Assembly (NCBI GenBank): GCA_964609095.1
Contig: CAZSQN010000002.1
Coordinates: 152,066-216,065 of the forward strand
DNA: 64,000 nt
Direction of reading: 5' to 3'
Source: an uncultured Gammaproteobacteria bacterium
GTDB taxonomy: Bacteria; Patescibacteriota; Patescibacteriia; CAZSQN01
Each line of letters begins with the position of its first letter. Position 1 is the first letter of the stretch. Position numbers and translations under genes: made by a program. This document shows, one piece after another, positions 1,081 to 48,286 of the stretch. Under the pieces are notes generated by a model that ran no database searches, had not been told where the DNA came from, and worked only from the letters and a program-made list of their open reading frames with translations.

Positions 1081-2139
1081 TTAAAAAGACAAAGAAACGG
1101 GCAGATTTCCGTTTTTTAACGACTGGTCGCACGCTTCCAAAATCTTAACCGTTTCGTATCCATGATAGCCGTCAATGATTGACGGGAGCGGCTCTTTTAT
1201 TCTTTTTAAGAAATGCTCCAGAGCGCCTTTAAGCGCTTCTTCCTCGTCAAGTTTGGGAATATAAACATCGCCCCGGCGATAAAAAGGCATGGCCGGAGTT
1301 TCTTTGGAAAAATCAAGTTCGGCGCCGCTGTCATGCACTCTTACTTTTTCCGAAACCTCAATATCGTCATAAACAACCATTTTTTTATCTCCGCCGAGCA
1401 GGATTTTGCGCATTTTAACCGGCGAAAGCCAGCTTGTATGAATATGCGCCAAAAATCCCGAAGGATAATCAAGCATCATGTGGGCTACCTCCTCCACGCG
1501 CGTGGAATTTGCCGTAACATACGATTTGCCAATGGCCGTAACGCGATTCGGCCGCTCGGCCGTCAGATAATTTAAAATGGAAACATCATGAGCGGCCAGA
1601 TCGTAAATCACGTTGACATCGCTTTGGATTAAGCCGAGATTGATCCGCGAAGAATCAAAATACCTTAAACGGCCAAGTTCTCCGATGTCAATCAATTCCT
1701 TGATTTTTCTGACGGCGCCGGTAAAAAGAAAAGTATGGTCAACGGCTAAAATCAGATTTTTTTCTTTGGCCAGCTCGTGAAGCGCGAGCGCGTCCGCCGA
1801 ACTTATCGCCAGCGGCTTTTCAACAAAACAATGCTTGCCCGAAGAAAGCGCGGCGCGGACAATTTCAAAATGAGAGCTCGGGGGCGTAGCTACGAGCACG
1901 GCTTCAATTTCGGCGTCGGCAATTACTTCCTGCCAATCGCCGCTCGCGCGCAAATGAGGATAATGGGCGCGCATCCATTCAACCCTTGACGGATCGCGGT
2001 CGCAGATAATCTGGAGCGCGCCGTCCTTTTGCGCCAGCGCGTTTCGCGCCAGATTTTTGCCCCAATAACCGGCTCCTATTAAAGCAAGACGAAGCATAGA
2101 AACGTTAAATAACTTACCAAAAAAATCTCTCCGCGTCAA
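1081..2139 (-). CDS. Gfo/Idh/MocA family NAD(P)-dependent sugar oxidoreductase
   Basis: N-terminal Rossmann LALIGAGYWGKN. Family is typical of UDP-sugar 3-dehydrogenases in glycan loci. Start may instead be the Met at 2097. Confidence 0.75.
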   Translation of the reverse strand: MTRRDFFGKLFNVSMLRLALIGAGYWGKNLARNALAQKDGALQIICDRDPSRVEWMRAHYPHLRASGDWQEVIADAEIEAVLVATPPSSHFEIVRAALSSGKHCFVEKPLAISSADALALHELAKEKNLILAVDHTFLFTGAVRKIKELIDIGELGRLRYFDSSRINLGLIQSDVNVIYDLAAHDVSILNYLTAERPNRVTAIGKSYVTANSTRVEEVAHMMLDYPSGFLAHIHTSWLSPVKMRKILLGGDKKMVVYDDIEVSEKVRVHDSGAELDFSKETPAMPFYRRGDVYIPKLDEEEALKGALEHFLKRIKEPLPSIIDGYHGYETVKILEACDQSLKNGNLPVSLSF

Positions 2140-3536
2140 CCGTTCTTTCGGCGCGCAAAGACGGAAAATCCGTATCCGGCTAAAATAAAGATGAAAGGAT
2201 TAACGGGGTAACGAAAACGCGAATAGCTGCCTATGCCGCTTCCAAGCGCGAAATAAAAAATTACCGCCGCAAAAAGGAGAGTGAGGGAAAACGCCCGTTT
2301 TTTAACTAAGGCCGTTGCCAATCCTAAAACCATAAAAGCCGTAATCGTAAGCCAGATTAGTTTGCCTCCCCAAAAAACAGCCGCGCCCAATCCGATTCTT
2401 CCTCTTAAAAATGAAAGCAGTTGGACGGGATTGCCGTTCCAGTCCGTAATGACGCGGGACGCGGATAAATCCGGAAAGATAACGGAAAGTGAAATTTGCA
2501 GCCCGTCTCCCAAAAAAAACGGAATAAAACTCGCCGAAATAATCTTTATAAAAGTTAAAGGATATTTTCTTATATAAATCCCGGCCAGCCGTTTTTCCGC
2601 TTCCGACGACAAAAGCTGGTTGGAGCTTTTAAGGTTTACGGCATCGGCCGCGAGCCGCTTCATCTCCTCCGTCATAGGCGCGTCCGGCAGAGCCGCGCGG
2701 ATAGCCGCGCCGTACTTGCCCATGCCCACATCGCCGGAGGCCGATGACATATCCGCGACTCCGAACAAAAATCTATTGCGAAGATACCACGGCGCCAAAA
2801 GCGCGGCTCCGGTTATAAAAAATACCAGACAGGCAAGCAAAGCCCGCGAAAATTTTATTTTTTTTATAATCGCCAAAAAAATTAAAAGCAGGACGGCGAG
2901 CGGCGGCAGAAGATAGGTTGAAACAGGCCGGATGTAAGCGCTGGCGGCAAGAAAGGCCGCCGCCAGCGTCAAATGGCGATAGCGAAAATCGTCCAGCGCT
3001 TTCCCAAGAAAATAAACGGCAAAAAAAAGCAGGGTTGCAAACAAGGTTTCGGAAAGAAGCTGGTTGTTCCAATAGATTCCGGTGGGGTCAAAGGAAAAAA
3101 GCGCGGCGGCCGCGAGCCCGGCAATTTTCCCGAATTTCAAACCCAATCTGTAAATAAATACGGCCAAAAAACCGGCGATTATATTCTGCGCCAATATCAC
3201 GGCCGCGATCGCGCCGGTGGCGCCGTAAAAAATGCTGACAAATAACGGATAGCCGGGCGTGCGAAAAGCGTCAGGAGCAAACGGCTCCGCCGCGCTTATG
3301 GAAAAAACGCCGCGGCGCAATAAATTTATGGCCAGCCGCAGATAGCCCTCGCTATCGTCGTTTATCGGCGGGGCAAAACCGATTTCTCCGTATCTCCAAA
3401 ATATCAGATGAAAAAATACCAATCTGGCCGCAAAAGCAAGGCAAAAAATAATAATCTCCGTCCGATGATTCCGAACAAACAGCCGTCCGGCAAGCAAAAA
3501 TCTAACGCAAAAAATTTTTAATTTAACTACACACAT
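2136..3536 (-). CDS. polytopic membrane glycosyltransferase, GT39/PMT_2 (ArnT-like) family
   Basis: Multi-TM protein with RTPGYPLF and DDSEGY motifs seen in PMT_2/ArnT-type transferases. The first 7 codons of the tool ORF (MCWIKQF) are an in-frame readthrough of the upstream repeat, so start set at the second Met. Confidence 0.5.
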   Translation of the reverse strand: MCVVKLKIFCVRFLLAGRLFVRNHRTEIIIFCLAFAARLVFFHLIFWRYGEIGFAPPINDDSEGYLRLAINLLRRGVFSISAAEPFAPDAFRTPGYPLFVSIFYGATGAIAAVILAQNIIAGFLAVFIYRLGLKFGKIAGLAAAALFSFDPTGIYWNNQLLSETLFATLLFFAVYFLGKALDDFRYRHLTLAAAFLAASAYIRPVSTYLLPPLAVLLLIFLAIIKKIKFSRALLACLVFFITGAALLAPWYLRNRFLFGVADMSSASGDVGMGKYGAAIRAALPDAPMTEEMKRLAADAVNLKSSNQLLSSEAEKRLAGIYIRKYPLTFIKIISASFIPFFLGDGLQISLSVIFPDLSASRVITDWNGNPVQLLSFLRGRIGLGAAVFWGGKLIWLTITAFMVLGLATALVKKRAFSLTLLFAAVIFYFALGSGIGSYSRFRYPVNPFIFILAGYGFSVFARRKNG

Positions 3537-3550
3537 AAATTGTTTAATCC

Positions 3551-3594
3551 AGCACATAACATAACATAATTTATGTTATGTTATGTGCTGGATT
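3551..3594. repeat. near-perfect 21-bp-arm hairpin (ccagcacataacataacataa / ttatgttatgttatgtgctgg)
   Basis: Inverted repeat seen directly. Variant of the CCCCGCACATAA unit. Overlaps the stop codon of the GT4 gene at 3581. Confidence 0.7.
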
Positions 3595-4738
3595 TAGCCC
3601 ACTCCCCAATTATATACCGGCCGCGAGATAGCCAAGAATATTTTTCCGCAATAGCCCTCCCTGCCCCGCCATAACGGCGGCGTAAATCTTCATTGTCAAG
3701 AAGAAGACGCAGAGCGCGCCCCATTGCCGCGGCGTCTCCCGCCGGAACAAGGCAAGCGGATTCGGCATTCACCACTTCGCGCACCGAAGGCAAATCAGTG
3801 GCAATCACCGGCCTGCCGCTGGCCAAGTATTCAAATAGCTTAAGCGGAGAAGTCCAGCGCAAAAAAAACGCTGAAGATGCGGGCGTTGGCATTAAAAGCG
3901 CGTCCGCGGCCGCGAGCCAGTCGGGGATTTCCGCGTATGGCCTCTGGCCGGCAAAAATAACAGCGCCGGACGGAAGCCCCAAATCGTTTAAATATTGTTT
4001 ATAAGCGGCTATAGCGCTCTCCGGCCCGCCGACTATGGCCAGAACAATATTTTTATTCCCATTCTTATACGCCTGCCCAAACGCTTCCAGCATCAGATAG
4101 ATGCCTTTTTCCATACCCATGGCCTCTAACCTGCCGACATACATGGCTATTTTCGCTTCAACCGGCAAAGAAAGTTTTTTCCGCGCTTCTTCTTGGCTCA
4201 AAGACGAGCTAAAACGTCTTAAGTCCGCTCCGTCGTGGGCGACAATTATTCTGGCCCCGCTCCTTAAAAACGGTTTGGCGTCTTGCGCCAAGGCGGCGGT
4301 TGTGGCGACCACTAACGATTTGGCATTAATAAATCTCAGCCATTTCCCGTAGGAAGGCAAACGGTGCAGTTCTAAGATAAACGGCTTTTGAAATAAGCTG
4401 AAAATCAAAGCCAGCCACTCGTCGCGCAGATATAAAATATCAGCGCGAGCGCGCCGCGACGCCAAAAGCGCGCCCGCGGCAAAACTTAATCCTTCAAGCG
4501 CCAAAGTAAAGATATTCGGGAAACGGCTTAAAAAATCAATGACCGGCAAGGTCTGCCACTTAAATGTCTGCTTAAAACCATAGGCGGAAAAAGGGTCGCC
4601 GCCATTTCCCCACCGTCTCGGGCTTACAAGCAAAACCTCGTGCCCCTGCTCCGCCAAGGCCGAGCACATTGACATAATTTGTATTCCATGCGCTTTTTCC
4701 GTCGGAAGCCGCGCGTTTACGGCATAAAATATTTTCAT
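3581..4738 (-). CDS. glycosyltransferase family 4
   Basis: GT4-like N-terminus MKIFYAV and C-terminal Glycos_transf_1-like region. Tool ORF prefix MRG is a repeat readthrough; real ATG at 4738 is immediately preceded by TTATGTGCGGGGT. Confidence 0.75.
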   Translation of the reverse strand: MKIFYAVNARLPTEKAHGIQIMSMCSALAEQGHEVLLVSPRRWGNGGDPFSAYGFKQTFKWQTLPVIDFLSRFPNIFTLALEGLSFAAGALLASRRARADILYLRDEWLALIFSLFQKPFILELHRLPSYGKWLRFINAKSLVVATTAALAQDAKPFLRSGARIIVAHDGADLRRFSSSLSQEEARKKLSLPVEAKIAMYVGRLEAMGMEKGIYLMLEAFGQAYKNGNKNIVLAIVGGPESAIAAYKQYLNDLGLPSGAVIFAGQRPYAEIPDWLAAADALLMPTPASSAFFLRWTSPLKLFEYLASGRPVIATDLPSVREVVNAESACLVPAGDAAAMGRALRLLLDNEDLRRRYGGAGRAIAEKYSWLSRGRYIIGEWAKSST

Positions 4739-4739
4739 A

Positions 4740-4835
4740 CCCCGCACATAAATCTATTTAATAATTAAATAGATGACATTATAATTTTTTTATTTTCCCG
4801 CATCCTATTCGTACTAAATAAATTTATGTGCGGGG
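4740..4835. repeat. 96-bp intergenic cassette bounded by 12-bp inverted repeats CCCCGCACATAA...TTATGTGCGGGG, containing a TATAAT box
   Basis: Seen directly. About 80% identical to the copy at 59068-59167. On the minus strand the TAA of its 5' arm is the asnB stop codon and its 3' arm is followed by T then the ATG of the next gene. Confidence 0.75.
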
Positions 4836-6674
4836 TTTCAAATATAAATTATGCCAGACCTGAAATGTCATCAGCGCCCAGATTGTGTTCAAACCGTAAA
4901 CTCTCATTTCCTTATGGTCATCCAAGATTTTAGAAATCGCCGCAAAATCAAAATACGCGTCCGTGCCGGCAGTATATGACGGACTCAAAATTTCTCCGGC
5001 AAACTGATATAATTCCCCTCTTATCCATTTGGCGGCGGGAGAAAAAAATCCCCGTTTTTTTTCTTTAGCCACGAAATCCGGAATCAGGCCGCCGATGGCT
5101 TGACGAAATATCTTTTTACCCAATATCCGCGATTCCAGCTTGTATTTTGACGGGATAGAAAAAGCAAGCTCCGCGAGCCGATAGTCCAATATCGGCACGC
5201 GCTCTTCAAGCGCGAAAGCCATAGACAGCTTGTCTGAACGGATAAGCGACTCGTCAGTAAGCCATGTTTTCACATCCGCCATCATCATCTGATTGGTAAA
5301 ATCTTTTTCTATGTTTTCAAAATATGGAGCAAATGCCCGCGCGGCGGCTTCGGGGCGGCTAACGTCTTTCTTTAAAAATTTTCCGACTTTTTCTTCTTTC
5401 TGCGCCATAAAAGAAAAAAACCTGTCCAAGCCCTGTTTTGCCTGAACCTTTTCCAAAAACGTCGTTCTGCCGGTAATGTTTCCCAAAAATGAAAGCAGCA
5501 TGGGATTAAGAAGCGGCGCCGGCAAAGACCCGATCTTATCAATGACCGAATTATAATAATATCTGTCATAGCCGCCGAAAAGCTCGTCGCCGCCGTCTCC
5601 GCCTAAAACAACATCAACCTTCTTTTTGGCAAACTGCGAAAGCAGATAGGTGGCCGGCTGAATGTGGTTGCTTACCGGCTCATCCATATGATAAATAACT
5701 TTTTCAAAACAATCCCGCGTGCCATTCGCGGAAATTTTTAAAGAATAGTGGTCGGTTCCAAAATGTTTGGCGATTCTCTCCGCCAGATAAAAATCGGCGT
5801 TGTATCTTTCCTCCTGAATGTCAATATCAAAGCCGACCGAAAATGTTTTAATCTTTCCGGGAATTATTTCCGCCATCGCGCCCAACACCGCGGTAGAATC
5901 AATGCCGCCGGAAAGAAAAACGCCCAAAGGACGGTCCGAAATCAGCTGTCTTTTAACCGCGTCCCTGAAAAGAGCAAGAATCTGCTCTTGCGCCTCGCCT
6001 CTCCCAAGCTCTTTTCCGCTTTTTAACTCCCAATACGGAGCCGTCTTCAAATCCCCATTTTTCAAAACCGCGAAATTGCCGGCGGGCAATTTAAAAATAT
6101 TTTTCCAGATAGTTTTGGGCGCGGGAACGTAAAGAAAGCGGAAATAAACGTTTAAGGAATCCAAATCAATTTCTCGCGGCACATTATGGCGAAGAATGGC
6201 TTTTATCTCGGAAGCAAAAATAAATTTCTTTCCGTCCCAGTAATAATAAAGCGGCTTTACTCCCAGATGGTCGCGCGCCAAAAAAAGCTCATTTCGTTCT
6301 TTGTCCCAAACGGCAAACGCGAAAATGCCGTTTAATTTTTTTATTGATTCTTTGCCCCACTCCGCGTAAGCGGCGAGCAATGCTTCCGTATCGCTTTTGG
6401 ATTTAAACGAATGTCCTTTTTTCTCTAATTCCTCTTTCAATTCCTGAAAATTGTAAATCTCGCCGTTAAAAGTGATAGTATATCGCCCGTTCGCGTAACT
6501 CATCGGCTGATGCCCCAGAGGCGAGAGGTCAATAATGGAAAGACGGTTATGACCCAAAGAAATTCCGGGCGCGCTAAAAGTTCCGGCGTCGTCAGGCCCG
6601 CGGTGATTTTGAATCGCAATCATCGCTTTTAATTTTTCTTCATCCTGAAAATTAAATCCGGAAATTCCACACAT
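4824..6674 (-). CDS. asnB: asparagine synthase (glutamine-hydrolysing), AsnB/WbpS-type amidotransferase
   Basis: MCGI N-terminal Cys nucleophile and SGGIDS PP-loop. Confidence 0.85.
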   Translation of the reverse strand: MCGISGFNFQDEEKLKAMIAIQNHRGPDDAGTFSAPGISLGHNRLSIIDLSPLGHQPMSYANGRYTITFNGEIYNFQELKEELEKKGHSFKSKSDTEALLAAYAEWGKESIKKLNGIFAFAVWDKERNELFLARDHLGVKPLYYYWDGKKFIFASEIKAILRHNVPREIDLDSLNVYFRFLYVPAPKTIWKNIFKLPAGNFAVLKNGDLKTAPYWELKSGKELGRGEAQEQILALFRDAVKRQLISDRPLGVFLSGGIDSTAVLGAMAEIIPGKIKTFSVGFDIDIQEERYNADFYLAERIAKHFGTDHYSLKISANGTRDCFEKVIYHMDEPVSNHIQPATYLLSQFAKKKVDVVLGGDGGDELFGGYDRYYYNSVIDKIGSLPAPLLNPMLLSFLGNITGRTTFLEKVQAKQGLDRFFSFMAQKEEKVGKFLKKDVSRPEAAARAFAPYFENIEKDFTNQMMMADVKTWLTDESLIRSDKLSMAFALEERVPILDYRLAELAFSIPSKYKLESRILGKKIFRQAIGGLIPDFVAKEKKRGFFSPAAKWIRGELYQFAGEILSPSYTAGTDAYFDFAAISKILDDHKEMRVYGLNTIWALMTFQVWHNLYLKPRT

Positions 6675-6854
6675 AATACAAATATATTGACTTTTTAATC
6701 TGTAACAATTAGCAGGGGGAACAAATTTTTTGCAGACGTTGCTGTCCGAGGCAAGCCGAGAAGCCCGGCGTTAGATTAAGGATGAGGGCTTCGAGGCCGG
6801 TCGAGCGTCAGCGAGAGCCAAGTTCAATGGCAAAAAAATTTGATTCCACGAGCG

Positions 6855-7997
6855 CTAAAAGCTTGTAATGGCTTTCGCGACCGCAAGAGTTACGTTCTTA
6901 TCAAAGATGTTCGGCAAAATCATGTCGGTTTTGGGTTCTGCCACGCAGGCGGCCAGATTCTCCGCCGCCGCTATAAGCATTTCATCAGTGATTTGTTTAA
7001 TTCCGTTATCCAGCGCGCCCCTGAAAATGCCGGGGAAAGCTAAAACATTGTTTAGTTGATTGGGGAAATCCGACCGCCCGGTAGCAACAATAGCCGCGCC
7101 GGCTTCTTTCGCCAAGTCCGGCATTATTTCCGGAACGGGATTGGCCAGAGCAAAAATAACCGGCTCTTTGTTCATTTTCTTAATCATTTCTCCGCTTAAC
7201 GCTCCGGCTTTGCTCACGCCGACAAAAACATCCGCTCCAGAAAGTACCGCGCCCAAATTGCCGGAAACGCGGCCGAGATTGGTTATCTTCGCCATTTCCT
7301 TCTTAGATTCGTTTAAATCCGCGCGGCCTTCATATATAGGGCCTTTGCTGTCGCACAAAATCAAATTTTTAAAACCGTATTTTAAAAGCAGTTTAGAGAC
7401 GGCGATGCCGGCCGCTCCGGCTCCATTCATAACAATCTTCACATTTTCTTTGGAAACGGCTTTGACCTTCAAAGCATTTATCAACGCGGCCAAAACAACG
7501 GTCGCCGTGCCATGCTGGTCATCATGCATAACCGGAATATCCAGCTCTGTTTTCAGCCGCTCTTCAATTTCAAAACAGCGCGGCGCGGAAATATCTTCCA
7601 AATTAATGCCGCCAAAAACAGGCGCGATATATTTGACCGCTTTGATTATTTCTTCCGCGTCCTGCGTGTCCAGACAAATGGGAAAGGCGTCTATATTGGC
7701 AAATTCCTTAAACAGCGCGGCTTTGCCTTCCATCACGGGAATGGCCGCTTCCGGGCCCAGATTGCCCAGTCCCAAAATGGCCGAGCCGTCCGACACCACC
7801 GCCACCGTGTTCTTTTTAATCGTGTATTCGTAAGCCAAATTTTTATCTCTGCCTATTTCCGCGCTCACGGCTCCCACACCCGGAGTATAAGCCAGAGACA
7901 AATCCGCCTTATTTTTAATAAGAACTTTGTTCGCGATTTCTATTTTGCCTCTATGCTTTTTGTGCAGTTCCAATGAATCCAAATAAACTTTGTCCAT
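6855..7997 (-). CDS. NAD(P)-dependent malic enzyme (short form)
   Basis: 380 aa with malic-enzyme signatures (AYTPGVG, GAGAAG NAD-binding). Confidence 0.8.
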   Translation of the reverse strand: MDKVYLDSLELHKKHRGKIEIANKVLIKNKADLSLAYTPGVGAVSAEIGRDKNLAYEYTIKKNTVAVVSDGSAILGLGNLGPEAAIPVMEGKAALFKEFANIDAFPICLDTQDAEEIIKAVKYIAPVFGGINLEDISAPRCFEIEERLKTELDIPVMHDDQHGTATVVLAALINALKVKAVSKENVKIVMNGAGAAGIAVSKLLLKYGFKNLILCDSKGPIYEGRADLNESKKEMAKITNLGRVSGNLGAVLSGADVFVGVSKAGALSGEMIKKMNKEPVIFALANPVPEIMPDLAKEAGAAIVATGRSDFPNQLNNVLAFPGIFRGALDNGIKQITDEMLIAAAENLAACVAEPKTDMILPNIFDKNVTLAVAKAITSF

Positions 7998-8041
7998 GTA
8001 TCAGAATTATGAATTAAAAATCAAGAATTATGAATAAAAAT

Positions 8042-10185: not shown

Positions 10186-10187
10186 AC

Positions 10188-10931: not shown

Positions 10932-10937
10932 AAAAAA

Positions 10938-11639
10938 CTAACGGCGTCCGACGGTATTAAAATAAATAATCGCGCCTATTGCTTTAATGCCGTCCTTCCA
11001 GTTTATTTTTTTCCCTTCTTTATAAGTGCGCCCCCTGTAAGAAATGCCCACTTCATAAATGCGCGATTGATTAGCCGCAAGGCGCGCCGTGATCTCCGGC
11101 TCAAAACCAAAACGGTCTGATTTAAGCGACGGCGCTATCTTCCGGATAACTTCGCCGGCAAACGCCTTATAGCAGGTTTCCATATCCGTGAGATTTAAGT
11201 TGGTAAACATATTGGAAAGGGTGGTCAGGACCCTATTGCCCAAAGCGTGCCAATAATACAAAACGCGGTGCGGATGCGAGCCCAGGAAACGCGAACCGTA
11301 AACAACATCGGCGTCTCCGTTCACAATCGGCTTTATAATCCAGGAAAACTCGGCCGGATTGTATTCCAAATCCGCGTCTTGGATAATCACCACGTCGCCA
11401 GTGGTCCCTCCAAAACCGATTCTTAACGCCGCGCCCTTTCCCATATTTCTGGTCTGATAAACAATCTTGTGCCGTCCCTCGTATTCTTTAAGAATATCCC
11501 TCGTTCCGTCCGTTGAGCAGTCGTCCACAATCACGATTTCTTTTTCAATGCCGCCGATATCAGCATCCTCCACGCGGCGCAAAATTTCGCGAATGGTATT
11601 TTTTTCGTTAAAAACAGGTATGACAACGGATAATTTCAT
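10938..11639 (-). CDS. GT2 glycosyltransferase, polyprenol-phosphate sugar synthase (DPM1-like)
   Basis: [10 protein letters not shown] ... [10 protein letters not shown]2 signature; size and layout like Dol-P-Man/polyprenol-P-sugar synthases. Confidence 0.75.
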
Positions 11640-16851: not shown

Positions 16852-16852
16852 A

Positions 16853-17176: not shown

Positions 17177-17177
17177 T

Positions 17178-23015: not shown

Positions 23016-23021
23016 TTGGAT

Positions 23022-25256
23022 TTATTTGTTCTCCATCGTCTTCAAAAACAATTCCGCCTCGTCTCTGTAAGACGGGTCCAATTTTGCCGCCAAAAGCGCC
23101 TCTTCGCGCGCGTCCTCCCAGCGTCCGATTTCTTTGTAAACAACGGCTAATTGGGCGTGGATGTCGGCCCGCTCCGGCGCCGCCTCCAGCGCGGCTTCCA
23201 AATAAAGCTGGACTCCGAAATAATTTTTTTCTCTGGCCATTAAGGTGGCGAGAATCAAACGATTTTCAACCTCGTGCGGAATAAATTTTTTCCTTGCCGC
23301 TTCCAAAAGCTCTCTGTCCGCGCTAACAATATCTCCCGTTTCGCGTAGCATTGCCCCGTAATACCAATGCGCTTCCCCCACCTCCGGCTCCAATTCCACC
23401 ATCTTGCGGTAAATCTCCTTGGCGTCTGGAAGCCGCCCTTGCAACACCCGCAATTTAGCCAGGCCGAACCATGTTTGCTGGCGCTTGGGCGAAAGGGCAA
23501 TAGCCGCCTCAAATTCTTTCTCCGCTTCATCATTAAAAGACGGGTCATAGTTAAGCGCTTCAGTGTATAATCTGGCCAGCAGATAGTGATAATAAACGTG
23601 CAACGGGTGGCGGGCGATGTTTGCCTCAAGCGCGCGCCGGGCAAAATCAAAATAATCCTGAAACTGTTCCGGCGGTATTGATTTTTTGATTAAAACGCCC
23701 ACCACAATCTGCGCCGCCTGCGTCCGCGTTTCCTCCTTATATGGAGTCGGCAATTTTAACGCTTCGCGAAAAAGAGGAATGCTGCGAACATCGCTGTAAT
23801 CAGTCGCGTAAACAGTTGATTGCAGCATGGCGTCGGAGGCGACCATCGGCTGCCAGTTTAATTTGTAAATCATAATTCCAGACGCCAAAAGCAATATGGG
23901 GAGAAGAAATTTGGAGTTTTGAGTTTTGAGTTTTGAGTTTGTTTCGGATTTCGGGCTTCGGATTTCGGGTTTAAATTCTCCCATCTTCGAACTTCCAACT
24001 TCCGCCCTCTGGTTCACTCCGGAGAGCAAAAACAGAAACAGAAAAAATGAGGCGGGGGAATCAAAAGCAAACAGATTTTGGATAAAATACATCAGAAGCC
24101 CTATAGAAAAAATCCGGCCTGTCAAAGCGCCCCGCCAGAGCCGATAAAACGCGTAGCCCAAAAGCGTGAGATAGGAAATAAGTCCGAGAACTCCGGAATG
24201 AATCAATGTCTCCAAAACAATATTGTGCGGCCTGTCCCACCATGTTTCATAATATGAAAAGCGCAAAAGAGACGGATTGTAATACTGATTAAAGGCGATG
24301 GGAAAATTCTCCTGGCCCCAGCCCAAAAGAGGCCTCGCGGCAATGCCCTTAAGCGCGACCTGCCATCCCAAAAAACGGGTGGTAATAGTCACTTCTTTTA
24401 AGGAGGTGACGGAAAAACGCCGCAAAGCCGGAATTGACTGAAAAGAAACCGGACCTTTGCTTAAAGATAAAAACAAAGCCATTGCCAAAATAAAAACGCC
24501 GGAGGCAACCGCGGCTATTTTTAGCCGGCGCGAAATCCTTGTTAAAACAAGGGCAACAAGCGAAAATACCAAACCGGCTGCAAGAGCTATAAGCGCGCCG
24601 CGCGTCTTGGTGGCCAAAATCATAATGATAAAAAAAGCCGCGGCCAAAAAAGCAAACCATCGGCGCCATCCGCTTTTTCTAAAAGCCAAATACAAGGCAA
24701 ACGGCAGATACAGAATAAAGGCGGCGGCAAGAAAAATAGGATTACCCAAAGTGCCGGCAAGGCGAAATCCCAAATCAACGCCGAAAATAAGAATGTTCCA
24801 CAAGCGCAAAAGAGCGACAATGCCCAAGGCAATACCTCCAAGCACGGCAATAAAATACGCGCGCTCCTTCCATTTTTGCTCGCCAAAAACAGAACGCGCC
24901 ATTAAAAAAAATACAATCGCGTGCAGCTGGGTGATAAGTCCCATGCCTCTTTCTTCCGTTCCCCAAAAACTGCGCAGAGAGTCAACTCCTAATACTCCCG
25001 CCAAAACGCTCACGGCAAAATAAGCCAGTAAAAGTTTAGAGAGAGTGTCAAACTTCGGCCTGTATTCCGGCGCGCCGACTATCAAAACTATAAATAACGC
25101 CAAAAATAATTCAACCGTTGCTTGCAAAAAAACAATCTTGCCGAAAACAAACGGATAAATTGTCCAGGGGGTTACGGCAAGCGGCAGGAAAAAAATAACA
25201 AACAAAAGCCCCCAGCGCAAAATGCTCAAAATTAAATTTTGATTGGATTTTGTCAT
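23022..25256 (-). CDS. Wzy_C + TPR membrane protein, paralog 3
   Basis: LGWGQENFPIAF, WWDRPHNIVL; low-complexity linker encoded by short tandem DNA repeats around 23915-24000. Confidence 0.7.
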   Translation of the reverse strand: MTKSNQNLILSILRWGLLFVIFFLPLAVTPWTIYPFVFGKIVFLQATVELFLALFIVLIVGAPEYRPKFDTLSKLLLAYFAVSVLAGVLGVDSLRSFWGTEERGMGLITQLHAIVFFLMARSVFGEQKWKERAYFIAVLGGIALGIVALLRLWNILIFGVDLGFRLAGTLGNPIFLAAAFILYLPFALYLAFRKSGWRRWFAFLAAAFFIIMILATKTRGALIALAAGLVFSLVALVLTRISRRLKIAAVASGVFILAMALFLSLSKGPVSFQSIPALRRFSVTSLKEVTITTRFLGWQVALKGIAARPLLGWGQENFPIAFNQYYNPSLLRFSYYETWWDRPHNIVLETLIHSGVLGLISYLTLLGYAFYRLWRGALTGRIFSIGLLMYFIQNLFAFDSPASFFLFLFLLSGVNQRAEVGSSKMGEFKPEIRSPKSETNSKLKTQNSKFLLPILLLASGIMIYKLNWQPMVASDAMLQSTVYATDYSDVRSIPLFREALKLPTPYKEETRTQAAQIVVGVLIKKSIPPEQFQDYFDFARRALEANIARHPLHVYYHYLLARLYTEALNYDPSFNDEAEKEFEAAIALSPKRQQTWFGLAKLRVLQGRLPDAKEIYRKMVELEPEVGEAHWYYGAMLRETGDIVSADRELLEAARKKFIPHEVENRLILATLMAREKNYFGVQLYLEAALEAAPERADIHAQLAVVYKEIGRWEDAREEALLAAKLDPSYRDEAELFLKTMENK

Positions 25257-27494
25257 TGCCGGTTGGAAAGGTCCTCCACCGCGCCTATAAATTCTTCCAC
25301 ATCGGCGCGCCTTCCCGGATCAAGCGTAATTGCCTTAAACGCCTCGGCTCTGGCTTCGTCAAATCTGCCTACGCTGGCGTAAACCGCCGCCAGCCGCAGA
25401 TGCAGGCCCGCGTCATTTGGCTCGGCTAGAGAGAGCCGTTCCAAAATCGGAATTATTTTTTCATACTTCCCGCGCGAGGCGTAAAAATCAACCACAAAAT
25501 TAATGCGGCGGATAACGCTCGCGCGAACATCTTGAAGATTGGAAACATAATTAGTCGCCGCCGCCTTGTCAAAGGCCACTTCAGCCGCGTCATATTCTCC
25601 GGCGGCAACAAGCGCCATGCCATACATCCAATATGACTCGCCGTGCTCGGGATTGGCAAGCGACAGAGCTTTAGCGCGCGCCACCGCTTCCGCCGCATTC
25701 CCGCGAGCCAATTCCATTTGCACGCGCATAATGGCTGTTGTCTGCCTGCCGGGCGCCAGCGCTTCGGCGCGATTAAACATTTCTTCTGATTTTTGGAAAT
25801 ACGCGCCGTCAAGATATTCGCCGGCAAGAGAAAAAATCTGCGCCGAACGGTAAACAAGAGGATAAACTTGCGGATGCGCGTTGGCGGATTTCTCCAGATA
25901 AGCCGCAAACTCCGGAAGAATTGATTTGGTTACGGGAACCGGAATAACTCCGGCCGCGTCGCCTTTTAAGATATCATCGGCAAAAATCTTGGCAATCTCA
26001 TCGTGAAGCGCCGTTTGCGTCCGCAGAGCCGATAAAAAATCTTTTTTGAATTTTTCAAAATCCCGCTGTACAACGTCTTTTTCCGCGCGAATGGCGTAAT
26101 AAGAGGCCTTAACGGGCAAAATCGCTCCGGCCCAAAGGAGCCATAAAATAACAAAAAAACTTAAATACCGTCCGGCTCTTCCCAGAACAAAACCAGGTGC
26201 CGCGGCGCTTTGCTCCGAAAAAATTTGAACATCAATAAAGGCAAGCATGGCCGCAAAAAGAATAAGCGCGCCAAAAGTGTCAAAAAGAAAAAATCCCTGT
26301 CCCAAATAACCCATAAGCCCGCCGGCTAAAAGCCCGGCCTCGCTTATGGGAAGCTGGAAGCTGGAATCCGGAAGCTGGGATATTTTACGGCGGCAAATGA
26401 GCCAAATTGGAATTGCAAAAAGAGCGATAAAAGAAATAAGCCCGACAATGCCGCTACTGCCCGCGATTTCCAAAACAAGATTATGCGGCCGGTCTGACCA
26501 CGTTTCGGAATAAGAGTATTTTAACAATTCCGGCCGATAAAACCGCGAGAACATTATCTCATAATTTTCCGGTCCCCATCCCAGCAGAGGTCGCGCCTTA
26601 AATCCGTCCAGCGCGATTTGCCAGTTGATGATTCTGGTTTCGGCCGTTCCTTCGCGCAGGAGCGAGCCCAGCGCTTTTCCAGGCGCGCTCTCGCGGCCTA
26701 AACCAAAATAGATAAACAATGAAGCGGCAATAAGGACAATCGGCAAAACAACGCCGGCAATGCCTAAAATCCGCGCGAAACGCCGACGCGAAAAGATAAG
26801 CAAAATCAAACCGGTTGTGAGCGCGCCCAAAAACAGTCCCATTATGGCGCCGCGGCTTCCGGCGGCAAAAAGCGCCGCGGTTTCGGCAACAATAACAACC
26901 GTCAAAAAAATTTTAATCTTGCGGCCCCTCTCCCGAGAGAAAAGCAGGGCGGTGAAAAAAATAATTAAAACAAGATAGCCGGCAAAAAAGCTGGGATTGC
27001 CGAAAGAACCGAAAAACCAATCGCCCGAAGAGCCAAAAAGGCGCGAGCCGGCGCCGGTGAATTTTTGCGCAAAACCGATAATCGTTCCCAGGCCTCCGGA
27101 GACGGCTATCATTCGCAAAAATTGAAGCTGTTTGCCGCGGCTTAAAAGCGCCTGCCTTAAAAGCAGAAAAAACAAAAAAAGAAAAATAAAAAAAATCGTG
27201 CCGGTTCCGCGCATTTGGTCGCCCCAAAAACTTTTCTCCGGATTCTCTCCCAAAAAGCCGGTAAAAAGCCGGATTAAAATATAAGCGCCAAAAACATAAA
27301 AAACAGCCGTAATGTTTAATCTAAACCCGCTCCCGGAAAAAACAAAAACAAGAAAAGACAAACCAATGATTGTCTCAAAAATGGCTTCCTTGCCCGAGAG
27401 ATGGGGAAAAAGCACGCCCGGAGTAATAATAAGCGGCAGGAAAAATACGGCTAAAAGCGCGCCACGGATTGCTTTTTCAATTTTCTGCTGATTC
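25253..27494 (-). CDS. Wzy_C + TPR membrane protein, paralog 4
   Basis: LGWGPENYEIMF, WSDRPHNLVL. Start set at MNQQKIEK; the longer tool ORF extends into the MITE-like element. Confidence 0.7.
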
Positions 27495-27500
27495 ATAAAT

Positions 27501-27663
27501 ATAACTGATATTAGGTTTATGAAGAATTGTTTTATAAATTTAGCCAAAAATTTAGGTTTAAACTTTGCCAGTTATTTGTCATTCCCGCGAAAGCGGGAAT
27601 CTACGGGTTCAAATTCTGGATTCCCGCTTTCGCGGGAATGACATAAAAAACCCAATATCAGTT
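27501..27663. mobile_element. MITE-like 163-bp element, copy 1, 16-bp terminal inverted repeats AACTGATATTAGGTTT / AAACCCAATATCAGTT
   Basis: Seen directly. More than 95% identical to 37319-37478. Contains the palindromic core GTCATTCCCGCGAAAGCGGGAAT...ATTCCCGCTTTCGCGGGAATGAC (two GAAA/TTTC tetraloop hairpins). Lies 6 nt upstream of the start codon of the gene at 25253..27494. Confidence 0.75.
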
Positions 27664-27720
27664 ATGTCGGCATTTATAATATATTTTGTTAACCCGCTCG
27701 TCAATGGCTGATAGCCCAAA

Positions 27721-27756
27721 TTCAAACCCCCACGCCAATTATTGGCGTGGGGGTTT
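27721..27756. terminator. hairpin cccccacgccaat/attggcgtggggg followed by TTTT
   Basis: 13-bp stem plus T-tract on plus strand; lies downstream of the large surface-protein gene (minus) and could act bidirectionally. Confidence 0.4.
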
Positions 27757-27852: not shown

Positions 27853-30800
27853 TTAGTAGGAGAGCGTCTTACCGACAAGCGGCAAGCTGTCAACATCAGT
27901 CAGGTTGGTGATGTATTCATCAGACCACTGAACTGGCGACTGACCGCCGGTCGCGCCTGTCTGGATGCCCACCGACAAGGTGTCGTTGGCTCCAATGTCG
28001 CTGTTGGAAGTATCCAAAGTGACAATGACGGTGCGAGAGCTATTACCCGCGATTTCAAGGTCAGTGAGGTTTCCTTCAGTAAGCTGCGTGTCCTGGGCAA
28101 ATCCTCCGCCTGTGTGGTTCATCGTTGTGGTGGCAAGCAGGTTAGCCGCGTCAACTGTCTCTTTATAGATATTCATTACTGCTCTTGTGCCGCCAATCGG
28201 GAGCGAGATGCCGGATGAGTTCACATCAAGGTTCAACTGCTTCAAGGTGATAGTGTAACCGCCCGGACTGGTGTTAGTGAACACAAACTTGGCAACCGTT
28301 GCTTCAGAGCTCTTGGTCTGGAGTCCTGATGGAGCGTCAGAGGCGTGAGCAACCGTGAGCTTGGACTTGAGCACATCAAACACAACCGCTTTAGCTCCGC
28401 CGCCGGTAGTACCGGTTGTAGGACCGATTATCAAACCGGCAGTGGCTGTGGCTCCGCCTTGAGTAATCTTAATGCCCGAGCCCTTGCCTGTTGCTTCTAC
28501 CGCATCATTGAAGCCGGACGTCGCACAATCCCAGTCACCGGTTGAACCAACTGTTGCGTCGCCAGCGAGAGTTCTGCCGCATGGAGAACCTTCCGCAGCG
28601 CTGTCATGAACAGTGGTAGAAGCGCCACCCATCACAAAGAGACGGTGAGTAGAAGATGACTGTCCGCCGTCCGCAAATGGGGTAAGGTCAGCTTTAACCG
28701 TAAGGGTCAGGTTGCCTCCCTTTGGCACTATTAGTCCGCCGCCGGAAAGACCGGTAAGGTCAAATACCGCGAGCGGCACGCTGGTGTTGTAGGTTGTGGT
28801 ATCCAGCGAGGCAAGCGAGCCCAAAAGCGTTGAGCCGTTCCACAGCTTCACGTTCTTAAGAGTACCAGTGGAGTTAAACGGCACCGCGGTGTTAGTGGTC
28901 ATATCATCGGCAACCACAAGCTTGGTGACCAAGATGTCTTCAGCGTTGGACTCTTCAGCCAGTTTGAACTTGGCAAATACCTGTTCGGAAGAGCCAAGCG
29001 TTAGCTGGGAAGCGGCCGGATCGCCGGAAACAGAAGTCACGCGCAGCATTCCCTTAGTGGCAATGAAGAGATCCTGGAGCGAAACATCAGTGGTATAGCT
29101 TGTATCAGTTGAAGTGGTAACGCCGGTGGCAGTCACTTTGTCCGCGATAACTTCGCCGTTTACGTCATCAGTATTCACATTAGAAACAGCCGCCGTGGTG
29201 CTCTTAATGTCAGCATAGACATCAATAACTATTTGTTCACCAATGCCAACGCGAAGCGACGGCGATACGGTAAACTCGTAAGTTGTTGAGTCGGTGTCCG
29301 TAAGAGTGCCGACTGTTGTGCCGAGCTGGGTAGTGCCCTTCTTCAATTTCATATTGATGAAGTAGTCGGCAAGGGTCACAGTGTCGCTTGTTGTATCAAC
29401 GTCATCCTTCAAAGTAACGCCGGTGATATCCGATTCTTCAGCTCCGCCGGTAATGACAAACGAGCCAATGCGCACGCCGGTCAAGCCGGGCACGCCAAGA
29501 GGCCTGGCGGATGTGTAGCTGGCCAAGCTGGTATTCTTAGTGACAGTCAGAAGGCCAGAACCAACCGTTACTGTTCTGCCGGAAACCGCGGAAGTGCTAA
29601 TGGCCGTAAGCGAAGTGCGTCCTTTGGCGTTGGACGAACCAGCTACCAAAGCGGCGCTTAATGTTTCGCCGCCGGCAACTGTCGCGTCTGTCAAGTCAGC
29701 CCTGTATTCAAGCACTTTGGTTGTCCCGGCCGCAATGGTAAAGGTGTTGCCAAAGCTGAAGTCAGTGCCGGTTTCGCTCGTGTCATCGCAGTCATCAGTT
29801 GATTGCGTAGTGCCGACCTGCGAACCGCCAAGGGTAAGCTTGATGTTGTCAAGGTTGTTAGTGGTGTCAGAGCTGTTGCAGGAAGTGTCCAAAGTATCAA
29901 CTTGAACGTCTTCGCCGGCAGCAGTCAAATTCCACTTAGCCAAAAGCACATTGGTCGCTCCGTCAGGCACATTGCCGGCTGGAGCGTCCGGATGAATTTG
30001 GATGGTGAGCGAGCCAGTGTTGATGGTGGTCGCGCCTCCGGCTTGAGTTACGGTAAAAGCGGCGGAATCGCTGGCAAGCACGGTCTCAACATTGTAGTTG
30101 AGGTCCCAAGCCACAATATCGGTTGTGTTCTGCACCGAGAAGCGATAAGTGCGATTTGTTCCGCCTTTAATGTCGCCGCGAAGCGATAACTGCTTGGTTG
30201 TGCCCGAAAGCATCTTCAAGCCGCCATCAGCCATTCCGGAGAGATCAAGCGCAAGCTTGCCGTCGCCCAATTGCGCGGCTGTCGCGCCCAACTGCGTGGC
30301 GCCGTCCATCAGCTTGATGTTCTGAAGGTCGTCAGAATCAACCGAGCCAACATTGGTCAAGGTTACGCGCTTAACAAGCATGTTCTGGTCGTTGGCATCA
30401 AACTTAAAGCGCCAGAGCTCAAAGTTGTCTTGCGGGTCAACAGTTGTTGCCGCGCCCGGAGAAACGTTGGCAACTTCAACATAGCCAAGGTCAGTGACCG
30501 AAGCCACGGTGAATTGATTGCCGACTGCCGAGCCGGAAACCGATGAAGCGTCAGAAGTAACATCTGCCGAAGCCAAGCTCCAGGCAACTGTTTTTCCGGA
30601 AGTGGTGTTATTGTCAATATCCATCTTCAAGGTTACATCCTTTGAACCGCCAGCCGGAACAGTAAAGAGTCCGGAAGTATTTTCAAAGGTGGCTACCCCT
30701 TGAGAAAGCGACTGGTTTTGCGTCAGACGAGTGTCGCCGTCATAGAGGTAGAGCGCGTCAATGTCAGAATCGGCCGTAATGCCGGTCCTGCGAACCAAAA

Positions 30801-31533
30801 GTTTGGTGACTTTTGCCGCCGCGCCGCTTGAAGCAAAGCGCATCTTTAACACTACGGCTCTCTGCGAGCTGCCATTGGTGTCATTGTCAGAGTCAGCGAC
30901 AATGGAACCGCCGGCCGGACTGTCAGACGCCGCGCTCACTTGAAGCGCTCCGCCGCCAGCTCCGCCTTCGGCAAGTCCCTTGTCAGAGTTAATGGTTGTC
31001 GCAGAATCCATTTGCGCCGCTTTATCAAAATCGGATGCTGAACTAACCGCCGAACCAACAGTGTAGTTGGTGAAGAAAGCATCCGGTACATCGTCAATTT
31101 GCGTATTCCAATTCGCTCCGTAAAGCGAAGTAGCGACTGCCTCGGAGGCAACATGCCTCAAGACGCCGCCTTTTGCCACCGCGTAAACCTTGGGGTCAGT
31201 GGTGATTTTCACCATTTTGACGCCCGGGCGATAGGTGGCATTGCCGCCAATGGTGACCGCGGCCAATTCCGCATCGGTTACTGTTTTCACCGTGGAAAAG
31301 TCCGAGTACCATGTCTTGTATGTTTTTTCATTCGGGAATACGTAGCGCTTGCCATCCCCGCCGTAGTAATAAACGGCCGGGAGCGAGGCCTTAATCAAAT
31401 CACCGGAAGAAAGAGCAGCCGCTTTTGCCGTTAAAGGCACGATAAAAGTGGCAAGCCCAATTGACCAGGCAATGGTTGATACGGCCACGCCGATGTGGAG
31501 CGCCCGTTTCCCAATCTGTAACGTGTTAGTCAT
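27853..31533 (-). CDS. large secreted cell-surface protein, Ser/Thr/Gly/Asn-rich with repeated beta-sandwich-like modules (S-layer/adhesin-like)
   Basis: 1226 aa, N-terminal signal peptide (hydrophobic stretch ending TAKA/AA). Recurring module ..V.KLLV....DSDD...L.DG.TQLG. appears at least 5 times. Roughly 20 N-x-S/T sequons, very high T/S content. Confidence 0.65.
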   Translation of the reverse strand: MTNTLQIGKRALHIGVAVSTIAWSIGLATFIVPLTAKAAALSSGDLIKASLPAVYYYGGDGKRYVFPNEKTYKTWYSDFSTVKTVTDAELAAVTIGGNATYRPGVKMVKITTDPKVYAVAKGGVLRHVASEAVATSLYGANWNTQIDDVPDAFFTNYTVGSAVSSASDFDKAAQMDSATTINSDKGLAEGGAGGGALQVSAASDSPAGGSIVADSDNDTNGSSQRAVVLKMRFASSGAAAKVTKLLVRRTGITADSDIDALYLYDGDTRLTQNQSLSQGVATFENTSGLFTVPAGGSKDVTLKMDIDNNTTSGKTVAWSLASADVTSDASSVSGSAVGNQFTVASVTDLGYVEVANVSPGAATTVDPQDNFELWRFKFDANDQNMLVKRVTLTNVGSVDSDDLQNIKLMDGATQLGATAAQLGDGKLALDLSGMADGGLKMLSGTTKQLSLRGDIKGGTNRTYRFSVQNTTDIVAWDLNYNVETVLASDSAAFTVTQAGGATTINTGSLTIQIHPDAPAGNVPDGATNVLLAKWNLTAAGEDVQVDTLDTSCNSSDTTNNLDNIKLTLGGSQVGTTQSTDDCDDTSETGTDFSFGNTFTIAAGTTKVLEYRADLTDATVAGGETLSAALVAGSSNAKGRTSLTAISTSAVSGRTVTVGSGLLTVTKNTSLASYTSARPLGVPGLTGVRIGSFVITGGAEESDITGVTLKDDVDTTSDTVTLADYFINMKLKKGTTQLGTTVGTLTDTDSTTYEFTVSPSLRVGIGEQIVIDVYADIKSTTAAVSNVNTDDVNGEVIADKVTATGVTTSTDTSYTTDVSLQDLFIATKGMLRVTSVSGDPAASQLTLGSSEQVFAKFKLAEESNAEDILVTKLVVADDMTTNTAVPFNSTGTLKNVKLWNGSTLLGSLASLDTTTYNTSVPLAVFDLTGLSGGGLIVPKGGNLTLTVKADLTPFADGGQSSSTHRLFVMGGASTTVHDSAAEGSPCGRTLAGDATVGSTGDWDCATSGFNDAVEATGKGSGIKITQGGATATAGLIIGPTTGTTGGGAKAVVFDVLKSKLTVAHASDAPSGLQTKSSEATVAKFVFTNTSPGGYTITLKQLNLDVNSSGISLPIGGTRAVMNIYKETVDAANLLATTTMNHTGGGFAQDTQLTEGNLTDLEIAGNSSRTVIVTLDTSNSDIGANDTLSVGIQTGATGGQSPVQWSDEYITNLTDVDSLPLVGKTLSY

Positions 31534-48280: not shown

Positions 48281-48286
48281 AAACTA

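Follow-up and report, generated by a model that had tools for sequence, protein, structure and literature searches.

The closest described counterparts of the genes treated here are the S-layer glycosylation (slg) loci of Paenibacillus and Geobacillus. In Paenibacillus alvei, WsfB joins a Wzy_C domain to C-terminal tetratricopeptide repeats (TPR) and is the predicted S-layer O-oligosaccharyltransferase; an AsnB homologue (WsfA) and a TagF-like glycerophosphotransferase (WsfC) are encoded in the same locus, and locus maps from Geobacillus stearothermophilus and Paenibacillus include the S-layer genes sgsE and spaA (PMC2943079). The O-oligosaccharyltransferase PglL and the O-antigen ligase WaaL are of the same general kind: an Arg/Arg/His triad (R215, R288 and H338) is needed in Escherichia coli WaaL and conserved in PglL, and overall homology does not separate PglL from WaaL (PMC3643930). 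Here we describe a stretch of 64,000 nucleotides (positions 152,066 to 216,065 of contig CAZSQN010000002.1, assembly GCA_964609095.1; hereafter the window) in which four tandem genes for Wzy_C+TPR proteins follow the gene for a 1226-aa secreted protein. The window comes from a genome of Candidatus Uhrbacteria, a member of the ultra-small bacteria of the candidate phyla radiation (CPR, or Patescibacteria). We see about an even chance that this locus is a surface-coat module, and that judgement extends in equal measure to the proposal that its Wzy_C-TPR enzymes, by analogy with WsfB in the S-layer locus of P. alvei, would O-glycosylate the adjacent surface protein.

A surface layer has reportedly been seen on CPR/Patescibacteria cells by cryo-electron microscopy, and we know of no coat protein or assembly pathway that has been defined for them. 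The envelope of these bacteria is still described as unclear, and their genomes are reported to lack genes for lipid A and lipopolysaccharide (LPS) (PMC5220378); a WaaL-type enzyme in such a cell therefore needs another acceptor. Together with the precedent of the WsfB-type S-layer locus, the lack of lipid A favours glycan transfer to the adjacent coat-like protein. According to a 2024 preprint, Patescibacteria have S-layer proteins; its main text names no family.

A conserved gene order around the candidate coat-protein gene

Gene classes were assigned by Pfam and NCBIfam profile scans of the open reading frames (ORFs) of the window. From position 33444 down to its left edge nearly all genes lie on the minus strand, and the core of the module, from right to left, consists of the following genes.

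33658 to 33951, plus strand: small DNA-binding protein of HTH_17 type, divergent from the gene for an extracytoplasmic function (ECF) sigma factor (Pfam, 24.8 bits, just under the cut-off of 27)
32896 to 33444, minus strand: ECF-family sigma factor, 182 aa (Sigma70_r2, Sigma70_r4_2, Sigma70_ECF)
31727 to 32899, minus strand: single-pass membrane protein with DUF5667, 390 aa (Pfam, 61.8 bits)
27853 to 31533, minus strand: large secreted protein, 1226 aa (ORF; homologues, AlphaFold2 (AF2) and Foldseek)
25253 to 27496, minus strand: T4, 747 aa, first Wzy_C gene after the large gene (Wzy_C, 66 bits)
23022 to 25256, minus strand: T3, 744 aa (Wzy_C, 69 bits, and several TPR families)
20727 to 23015, minus strand: T2, 762 aa (Wzy_C, 72 bits, and TPR)
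18299 to 20734, minus strand: T1, 811 aa (Wzy_C, 71 bits, and TPR)

The recurring order in related loci is a divergent HTH_17 gene, the ECF sigma gene, the DUF5667 gene, a gene for a ~1200-aa protein and, following it on its own strand, between one and four Wzy_C(+TPR) genes. The series from sigma factor to Wzy_C is found where the large proteins share 37-52% identity, and adjacency, order and orientation are kept down to ~35%. In nearly all related loci the sigma gene precedes the large gene by 1-2.5 kb, with the DUF5667 gene kept between the two. Loci L003, L087, L088 and L089 have an HTH_17 gene in the same divergent position, and by this sequence comparison the gene is part of the conserved module.

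To count the association, the ORFs of 81 distinct loci were all searched with a hidden Markov model (HMM) built for the Wzy_C core, and a locus was counted if it offered at least 5 kb on the side tested. A Wzy_C ORF lies downstream of the large gene in 39 of 55 loci, and in 24 of 26 when full-length relatives are taken, while the upstream side holds one in none of 60; the downstream copies share the strand of the large gene in 80 of 84 cases. Moreover, the paralogs keep their places: a T4-like copy stands first in most related loci, a T3-like copy second and a T1-like copy last, and T2-like copies are third in the clade nearest to the window (L006-L008). Past the Wzy_C genes, the glycosyltransferase genes differ between loci or are missing (L087, L089). 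Since the core of the module persists without the same glycosyltransferase genes, the Wzy_C genes track the protein and not a particular glycan. By analogy, such tracking is the pattern of O-oligosaccharyltransferases, which usually lie beside their targets; pglL genes, for example, adjoin pilin genes in 21/31 (PMC3643930).

Two further observations concern the related loci. In L087 (13727-15385) the interval between the large gene and the first Wzy_C gene holds an extra 552-aa protein with weak matches to the Ig-like families Big_1 and Invasin_D3. The insertion belongs to a clade at ~52% identity, and L006-L008, which have the same ~1.7-kb gap, are probably alike; the protein may be a second surface protein or acceptor. 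In addition, many metagenome-assembled genomes that carry the module (L007-L012, L020, L027 and others, from binchicken co-assemblies) are titled 'uncultured Gammaproteobacteria bacterium' or 'Candidatus Saccharibacteria', and single ones are titled Thermoplasmata archaeon, Methylomirabilis or Acutalibacteraceae. These oddly titled genomes are probably mislabelled or contaminated bins.

Four ancient Wzy_C-TPR paralogs

All four paralogs score far above the Pfam cut-off for Wzy_C (PF04932; 66-72 bits, cut-off 31.7). Their pairwise identity is only 24-28%, which marks them as ancient paralogs and not recent duplicates. The motifs LGWG.EN and ETW.D(R/H).HN are invariant across T1-T4, as an original prediction made from the letters of this DNA had observed for LGWG.EN and W.D(R/H).HN. 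The start of T4 is probably at 27496, as in the NCBI annotation, and not at 27547.

The fold points to WaaL. T4, the one paralog modelled, gave an AF2 model with a predicted local distance difference test score (pLDDT) of 91.2 and a predicted TM-score (pTM) of 0.90, and its best match in the Protein Data Bank (PDB) is WaaL (7tpg, chain 7tpg_B; Foldseek E = 3.3e-6, TM-score 0.62 on the target). WaaL 7tpg is recovered by sequence as well, with a family profile as query (E = 5e-17). In the HMM alignment, Arg, Arg and His of the paralogs pair with Arg, Arg and His of 7tpg: among 36 family sequences R288 and H338 are invariant and R215 nearly so, and all three are invariant in T1-T4. The helices of the T4 model, read with the positive-inside rule, give 13 transmembrane (TM) helices with the N-terminus inside, a predicted topology that puts the TPR domain (~280 aa) outside the cell, where the catalytic loop also lies.

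Finer assignments were tried and set aside. The paralogs were not filed as PglL, as they lack the PglL_A motif, and a transporter role like that of IctB was rejected as unsupported. Scores for the NCBIfam subfamilies PEP_O_lig_1, IctB, RfaL, Wzy_EPS and glyco_rpt_poly are all far under their cut-offs; RfaL (NF012031; cut-off 277), for instance, has no match in T1 and reaches 17-35 bits in the other three paralogs, Wzy_EPS reaches 24.7 against 670, and glyco_rpt_poly 16-22 against 40.

A candidate coat protein

The large protein is identical (100%) to HYT45_02150 of a Candidatus Uhrbacteria genome (313-kb contig JACOZF010000008.1 of GCA_016181485.1) and matches no family in Pfam or NCBIfam. A single hydrophobic segment lies at its N-terminus, with a predicted signal peptide cleaved after a conserved A-x-A, and the protein is net acidic; Ser and Thr make up 23.4% of its residues, compared with 7-11% in the neighbouring enzymes. 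The giant secreted protein very rich in Ser and Thr that had been proposed from the ORF list is thus borne out by its composition and its signal peptide.

In the AF2 model (mean pLDDT 85.4), an N-terminal alpha/beta domain (~aa 40-190) is followed by ~7 Ig-like beta-sandwich domains, and Foldseek searches of the PDB return generic multi-Ig proteins only (PrgB, alpha-2-macroglobulin, integrin legs). Modelling, which the original prediction had proposed as a check for Ig-like or S-layer domains, gave the former; profile scans showed no known S-layer or anchor domain. The N-terminal ~150 residues are the best-conserved part of the protein; neither a profile search of PDB sequences nor Pfam scanned at relaxed thresholds gave more than noise for this domain, which probably anchors the protein to the wall.

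Relatives are numerous. A scan with one genome per species found them in 440 genomes, and database searches gave more than 1199 homologues, of which most of the best 120 align over the full length at 35-73% identity and nearly all of these 120 measure 1170-1330 aa. Those whose source is named come from Patescibacteria (Uhr-, Falkow-, Magasanik- and Parcubacteria) or from unclassified bacteria. Constant length and full-length alignability, as far as sequences can tell, argue for a structural coat protein and not a repeat-variable adhesin. We accordingly treat the protein as a candidate surface-coat (S-layer-like) protein and as the proposed glycan acceptor.

The C-terminus deserves separate mention. 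It reads SLPLxGKTLxY-COOH (window 27853-27885) and is nearly invariant in the homologues, including P1218, T1223 and Y1226; no TM segment or LPXTG motif follows LPLxGKTLxY. It may be the last strand of the final domain, or a sorting or assembly signal.

The original prediction had also counted about 20 N-x-S/T sequons in favour of glycosylation. Their enrichment is real (25, against 13 +/- 3 in shuffled sequences), and it was set aside: enzymes of Wzy_C type are O-linking, which makes sequons irrelevant here, and no N-oligosaccharyltransferase of STT3/PglB type is present.

Regulation of the module

Four candidate signals lie in the intergenic regions of the module.

33451 to 33477, minus strand: ECF-type promoter, TGTAAC-N16-CGTCT, ending 6 nt before the ATG of the sigma gene (from the sequence)
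31650 to 31727, minus strand: AGCT-rich imperfect hairpin that separates the large gene from the DUF5667 gene (RNA fold at -31.7 kcal/mol, z = -3.8)
27724 to 27756, minus strand: hairpin like an intrinsic terminator, ~100 nt after the stop of the large gene (15-bp perfect stem, -29.2 kcal/mol, z = -5.4)
27676 to 27704, minus strand: sigma-70-like promoter match, TTGACG-17-TATTAT, ahead of the Wzy_C-TPR operon (consensus match only, 10/12 positions)

The position of the first motif, 6 nt before the ATG, points to autoregulation and a nearly leaderless mRNA, and the sequence implies a typical autoregulated ECF promoter. GTAAC-N15-18-CGT(C/A) occurs within 200 nt upstream of the estimated start of the sigma gene, mostly at 26-45 nt, in 45 of 68 distinct loci, and is often the sole match on that strand of a ~20-kb locus; we estimate that chance would give ~0.007 matches in such a stretch. 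The ingredients of an ECF pair are all present, namely sigma regions 2 and 4, a promoter of autoregulatory type and a gene for a membrane partner. That partner, the DUF5667 protein, spans the membrane once (TM helix 72-90), with 71 aa of N-terminus in the cytoplasm and 300 aa outside. An anti-sigma domain was not recognised in it, and our full-text literature search found no paper mentioning DUF5667; the position of its gene suggests an anti-sigma or sensor partner of the sigma factor.

Direct control of the large gene by the ECF sigma factor was considered and is unsupported, because the ECF motif is essentially absent upstream of that gene (a single weak match, in L022, among the 68 loci). 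A sigma-70-like promoter match lies upstream of the large gene instead, and a U-rich tract, UUUGAAUUU, follows the stem at 27724-27756, so that by sequence the gene appears to have its own promoter and terminator. The palindrome at 31650-31727, built from repeats of AGCTTTTAGCT / AGCTAAAAGCT, could be a terminator or attenuator of the sigma operon, or an operator.

A dispersed palindromic element of ~65 nt occurs in intergenic DNA at window positions 27578-27643, 34117-34190, 37396-37454 and 61619-61677. Its two arms, of 25 nt, contain ATTCCCGCGAAAGCGGGAAT; the arm has 8 matches, where 0.01 would be expected. One copy, at 27578-27643, sits in the interval from the large gene to the first Wzy_C gene and has a folding energy of -47.7 kcal/mol (z = -10.6). 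By its sequence the element looks like a REP- or MITE-like repeat.

The glycan-assembly cluster

Downstream of the Wzy_C-TPR genes lies a string of genes for glycan assembly, listed here from left to right. Glycosyltransferase families are given as GT4 and GT2, the C-type fold as GT-C, and short-chain dehydrogenases/reductases as SDR.

1 to 1078, minus strand: continuation of the operon (gene calls on the same NCBI contig, L085; PP-binding match), made up of the next three genes
1 to 457, minus strand: AMP-dependent ligase, start only (gene call)
454 to 696, minus strand: acyl carrier protein (gene call, PP-binding match)
701 to 1078, minus strand: phosphopantetheinyl transferase (gene call)
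1081 to 16917, minus strand: variable glycan-assembly operon (Pfam, NCBIfam), made up of the next thirteen genes
1081 to 2139, minus strand: Gfo/Idh/MocA protein (Pfam)
2136 to 3557, minus strand: PMT_2 GT-C protein (Pfam)
3581 to 4747, minus strand: GT4 (Pfam)
4824 to 6674, minus strand: AsnB-type amidotransferase (Pfam)
6855 to 7997, minus strand: NADP-malic enzyme, 380 aa (NCBIfam, 353 bits, N-terminal part of PRK12861)
8042 to 9058, minus strand: GT4 (Pfam)
9058 to 10185, minus strand: WecB-type 2-epimerase (Pfam)
10188 to 10931, minus strand: methyltransferase (Pfam)
10938 to 11639, minus strand: GT2, 233 aa, like a polyprenyl-phosphate sugar synthase (Pfam, NCBIfam)
11636 to 12571, minus strand: UXS-like SDR (Pfam)
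12556 to 14811, minus strand: double GT4 (Pfam)
14808 to 15950, minus strand: GT4 (Pfam)
15907 to 16917, minus strand: SDR epimerase (Pfam)
17169 to 18344, plus strand: GT4, convergent with T1, with a 46-bp 3' overlap (Pfam)

By Pfam, the window contains sugar-nucleotide enzymes, GT4 and GT2 glycosyltransferases, a PMT_2 GT-C protein and four Wzy_C+TPR proteins beside the secreted Ser/Thr-rich protein of 1226 aa, and every gene class that the original prediction had named is found where it had been placed. Five of the genes encode GT4 enzymes, one of them double. A promoter-like TTGACA-17-CATAAT lies ahead of the operon, at 17043-17015 (consensus match). The malic enzyme gene, which codes for no sugar enzyme, sits inside the operon with a GT4 gene and the AsnB-type gene as neighbours. 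The gene content of 1081 to 16917 is not kept in related loci, and an opposite-strand GT4 gene after the Wzy_C genes is also found in L001, L002 and L003.

Two features ascribed to the block hold in part. It had been described as co-oriented, which is true of most of it; the GT4 gene at 17169-18344, on the plus strand, means that it is not fully so. It had been drawn as starting at 2136, and the cluster in fact runs at least 19 kb past the left edge of the window, as read from L085, on the same NCBI contig, and then L092, the two being 100% identical over a shared 11 kb; the read set SRR12113430 assembles into a contig with this 100% identity to the NCBI contig over 11 kb. Beyond the edge lie genes for an iron-containing alcohol dehydrogenase (Fe-ADH), LuxE, LuxC, a hexapeptide acyltransferase, a DegT aminotransferase, a GT2, methyltransferases, three TagF-like glycerophosphotransferases, a radical SAM/SPASM protein, a second WecB, a PAPS-reductase-like protein (PAPS_reduct) and an SDR. 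A Wzx-like protein of the MOP superfamily (Polysacc_synt_3, 445 aa, 47.8 bits against a cut-off of 23) is encoded 9.3-10.6 kb to the left of the window. That no Wzx flippase accompanies the array is therefore correct for the window and an edge artefact for the locus.

One part of the extended cluster forms a unit of its own. The genes from phosphopantetheinyl transferase to DegT occupy window 1-1078 and then L085 11062-18502 / L092 1088-8528, and this set (phosphopantetheinyl transferase, acyl carrier protein, ligase, Fe-ADH, LuxE, LuxC, acyltransferase and DegT) suggests an unusual N-acylated amino sugar in the glycan.

Proposed glycosylation of the adjacent protein and its alternatives

From these observations we infer the following route. 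The genes for an ECF sigma factor that appears to control itself and for its presumed membrane partner, DUF5667, stand ahead of the large gene. Products of the variable GT4/GT2 and sugar-modifying genes would assemble glycans with polyprenyl diphosphate as the carrier, and the Wzx-like MOP protein of the same cluster would flip the lipid-linked glycans. The Wzy_C enzymes would then move them en bloc, outside the membrane, to hydroxyl groups of Ser, Thr or Tyr in the adjacent protein, which the TPR domain would hold as acceptor. Each paralog may serve its own glycan or its own region of the acceptor, or one of the four may be a polymerase. What speaks for this route is the conserved synteny, the WaaL fold with its triad, the predicted topology, the WsfB precedent, the acceptor-like features of the large protein (signal peptide, 23.4% Ser+Thr, constant length) and the flippase, and on their sum we stand midway between acceptance and doubt.

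Several observations weigh against it. The search beyond the window for wzx or phosphoglycosyltransferase genes, proposed with the original prediction, yielded the Wzx-like gene, and no initiating phosphoglycosyltransferase (Bac_transf, Glycos_transf_4) in the ~83 kb made up of the window and the 19 kb to its left. Three TagF-like genes and two WecB-type epimerases in the cluster are typical of teichoic-acid-like wall polymers. Neither PglL_A (PF15864), a model built from proteobacterial PglL only, nor Wzy_C_2 matches any paralog at E <= 1, and the paralogs reach no curated NCBIfam subfamily cut-off. TPR domains also serve as scaffolds in polysaccharide export. The large protein contains no SLH, CWB2 or other known anchor domain, and 16 of the 55 related loci have no Wzy_C gene within 10 kb downstream. 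Finally, two distant Wzy_C-TPR relatives lie in ordinary clusters with Wzx, Bac_transf and glycosyltransferase genes and no such protein nearby, which tempers the argument from synteny. The original claim that glycans are put onto the adjacent protein thus gains, for the link between array and protein, from the conserved synteny and from WsfB, and shares the field with a polymerase or wall-polymer role.

The alternative that survives best, possible though in our view unlikely, is that the cluster makes a teichoic-acid-like or secondary wall glycopolymer by a Wzx/Wzy-type route, with the Wzy_C-TPR proteins as polymerases and/or ligases for non-protein acceptors and the polymer anchoring the large protein through its N-terminal domain. 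On this view the conserved gene order would mark a coat protein coupled to its anchor and not protein glycosylation, an interpretation to which we give the same limited credence. The TagF-like genes, the two WecB-type UDP-GlcNAc 2-epimerases and the Wzx-like flippase all fit such a polymer, as do the breadth of Pfam Wzy_C, which spans polymerases and ligases, the weak matches to Wzy_EPS and glyco_rpt_poly, and the distant family members in ordinary Wzx and phosphoglycosyltransferase clusters without the large protein. In addition, the best-conserved part of that protein is its N-terminal domain, the kind that usually anchors coat proteins, and S-layer genes of Firmicutes often lie beside wall-polymer loci. 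However, polymerases are normally specific for a repeat unit and travel with glycosyltransferase genes, whereas these Wzy_C genes stay by the protein gene even where the glycosyltransferases are missing or different. The WaaL/PglL-type His is kept in all four paralogs, and four polymerase or ligase paralogs for one polymer would be unusual. Moreover, neither an LCP-family ligase, the lack of which tells against a wall polymer, nor an ABC exporter was found in the same ~83 kb.

Direct glycosylation by the GT-C protein is a far less probable route, whether beside or in place of the Wzy_C enzymes: the GT2 would make a polyprenyl-phosphate sugar and the PMT_2 protein would add single sugars to the secreted protein, much as in a Ppm1/Pmt system. 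The PMT_2 match is above its cut-off (35 bits against 26.1), the best NCBIfam matches of the GT2 (AglJ, ArnC, PgfS, PpgS) are polyprenyl-phosphate sugar synthases, and both genes belong to one operon-like string. Yet all GT2 scores are far under the curated cut-offs (AglJ 115 against 325), the two genes lie ~7 kb apart, and tblastn searches of the related loci found no PMT_2 and only a few copies of the GT2. Such a pair is equally typical of Gtr-type side-chain glycosylation of polysaccharides. The comparison with actinobacterial O-mannosylation, drawn in the original prediction from a DPM1-like synthase paired with a PMT-like transferase, is not supported, given this distance and this distribution. 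Just as improbable is the absence of any functional link, the large protein being some adhesin or surface protein that merely lies beside a generic exopolysaccharide or capsule locus, for although 16/55 loci lack the downstream Wzy_C gene and generic Ig-like repeats are typical of adhesins too, the order, strand and adjacency kept across deep divergence, with 0/60 upstream, are hard to get by chance, the positional orthology of the paralogs is kept, and a length of ~1170-1330 aa with full-length alignment is unlike repeat-variable adhesins.

Implications

A Wzy_C oligosaccharyltransferase beside a surface-protein target is a known kind of arrangement. New are the CPR setting, the phylum-wide module with an ECF sigma/DUF5667 pair and the tandem of two to four anciently diverged, TPR-bearing paralogs; our full-text literature search found no paper linking the candidate phyla radiation with O-antigen ligase-type enzymes. 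The locus offers a candidate coat protein family (440 species-level genomes), conserved enzymes whose most likely task is to modify that protein or to anchor it, and a dedicated ECF regulator with a recognisable promoter, and thereby a testable candidate for how CPR bacteria build and sugar-coat their surface.

A bolder extension, which we offer as speculation and consider doubtful, is that much of the Patescibacteria uses the ~1200-aa protein as its S-layer or coat, and that HTH_17, ECF sigma, DUF5667, coat protein and two to four Wzy_C-TPR enzymes form a radiation-wide system of coat biogenesis, in which specialised O-oligosaccharyltransferases decorate different regions or attach different glycans and the sigma/DUF5667 pair senses the coat. 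If true, it would be the first defined envelope-assembly pathway of the CPR, with a multi-transferase form of protein O-glycosylation not described elsewhere. Four O-oligosaccharyltransferases of differing specificity would also be of interest to glycoengineers.

Other features of the window

On the minus strand at 44851-50777 lie genes for an aspartokinase with ACT domains, a homoserine dehydrogenase, an aspartate-semialdehyde dehydrogenase, a GHMP kinase (homoserine-kinase-like) and a pyridoxal phosphate (PLP)-dependent, threonine-synthase-like enzyme. This is a complete aspartate-to-threonine gene string, curious beside a surface protein with 14% Thr and unusual in a CPR genome, since CPR genomes generally lack amino-acid biosynthesis. 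In addition, positions 54001-56000 have a GC content of 0.40, against ~0.47-0.53 elsewhere, and hold an ORF of 511 aa (54394-55929) with only a weak AAA_17 match; this segment may be foreign DNA.

Relation to described systems

Several known systems can be set beside this locus. As regards actinobacterial Ppm1/Pmt, the locus encodes a PMT_2 protein above the cut-off and a GT2 that resembles polyprenyl-phosphate sugar synthases while scoring under the cut-offs, in a pair that is not conserved in related loci. Wzy polymerases are likewise polytopic members of the same Pfam family, distant relatives of the paralogs lie in Wzx and phosphoglycosyltransferase clusters, and a Wzx-like flippase is present here too; in contrast, scores for the curated Wzy models are under their cut-offs, and the genes follow the protein gene and not glycosyltransferases.

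WaaL (7tpg) is the best match in both fold and profile, with Arg, Arg and His of the catalytic loop aligned. It differs in that the RfaL scores are far under the cut-off and in the extra TM helix and TPR domain found here. Moreover, CPR genomes are reported to lack lipid A (PMC5220378), so that the acceptor of WaaL should not exist. The PglL/PilO/TfpO enzymes share the Wzy_C core, the conserved Arg/Arg/His and a gene beside the presumed target, which here would be the large protein. Unlike them, the paralogs lack the PglL_A motif (PF15864) and carry a large TPR domain (~280 aa) after an extra 13th TM helix, their presumed target is a 1200-aa Ig-repeat protein and not a pilin, and their host group is reported in the literature to be without LPS.

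The slg loci with WsfB/WsaB come closest. Four ancient tandem Wzy_C-TPR paralogs stand here against one there, and the module is tied to an ECF sigma/DUF5667 pair. The candidate acceptor belongs to an unclassified, Patescibacteria-wide family without SLH or known anchor domain, and the ~83 kb contain no initiating transferase of WsaP/WsfP type. The likenesses reach from the enzyme, a Wzy_C protein with C-terminal TPR that fits the published description of WsfB, to the setting: AsnB-type and TagF-like genes accompany it both in P. alvei and here, and the export step is present here as the Polysacc_synt_3 flippase.

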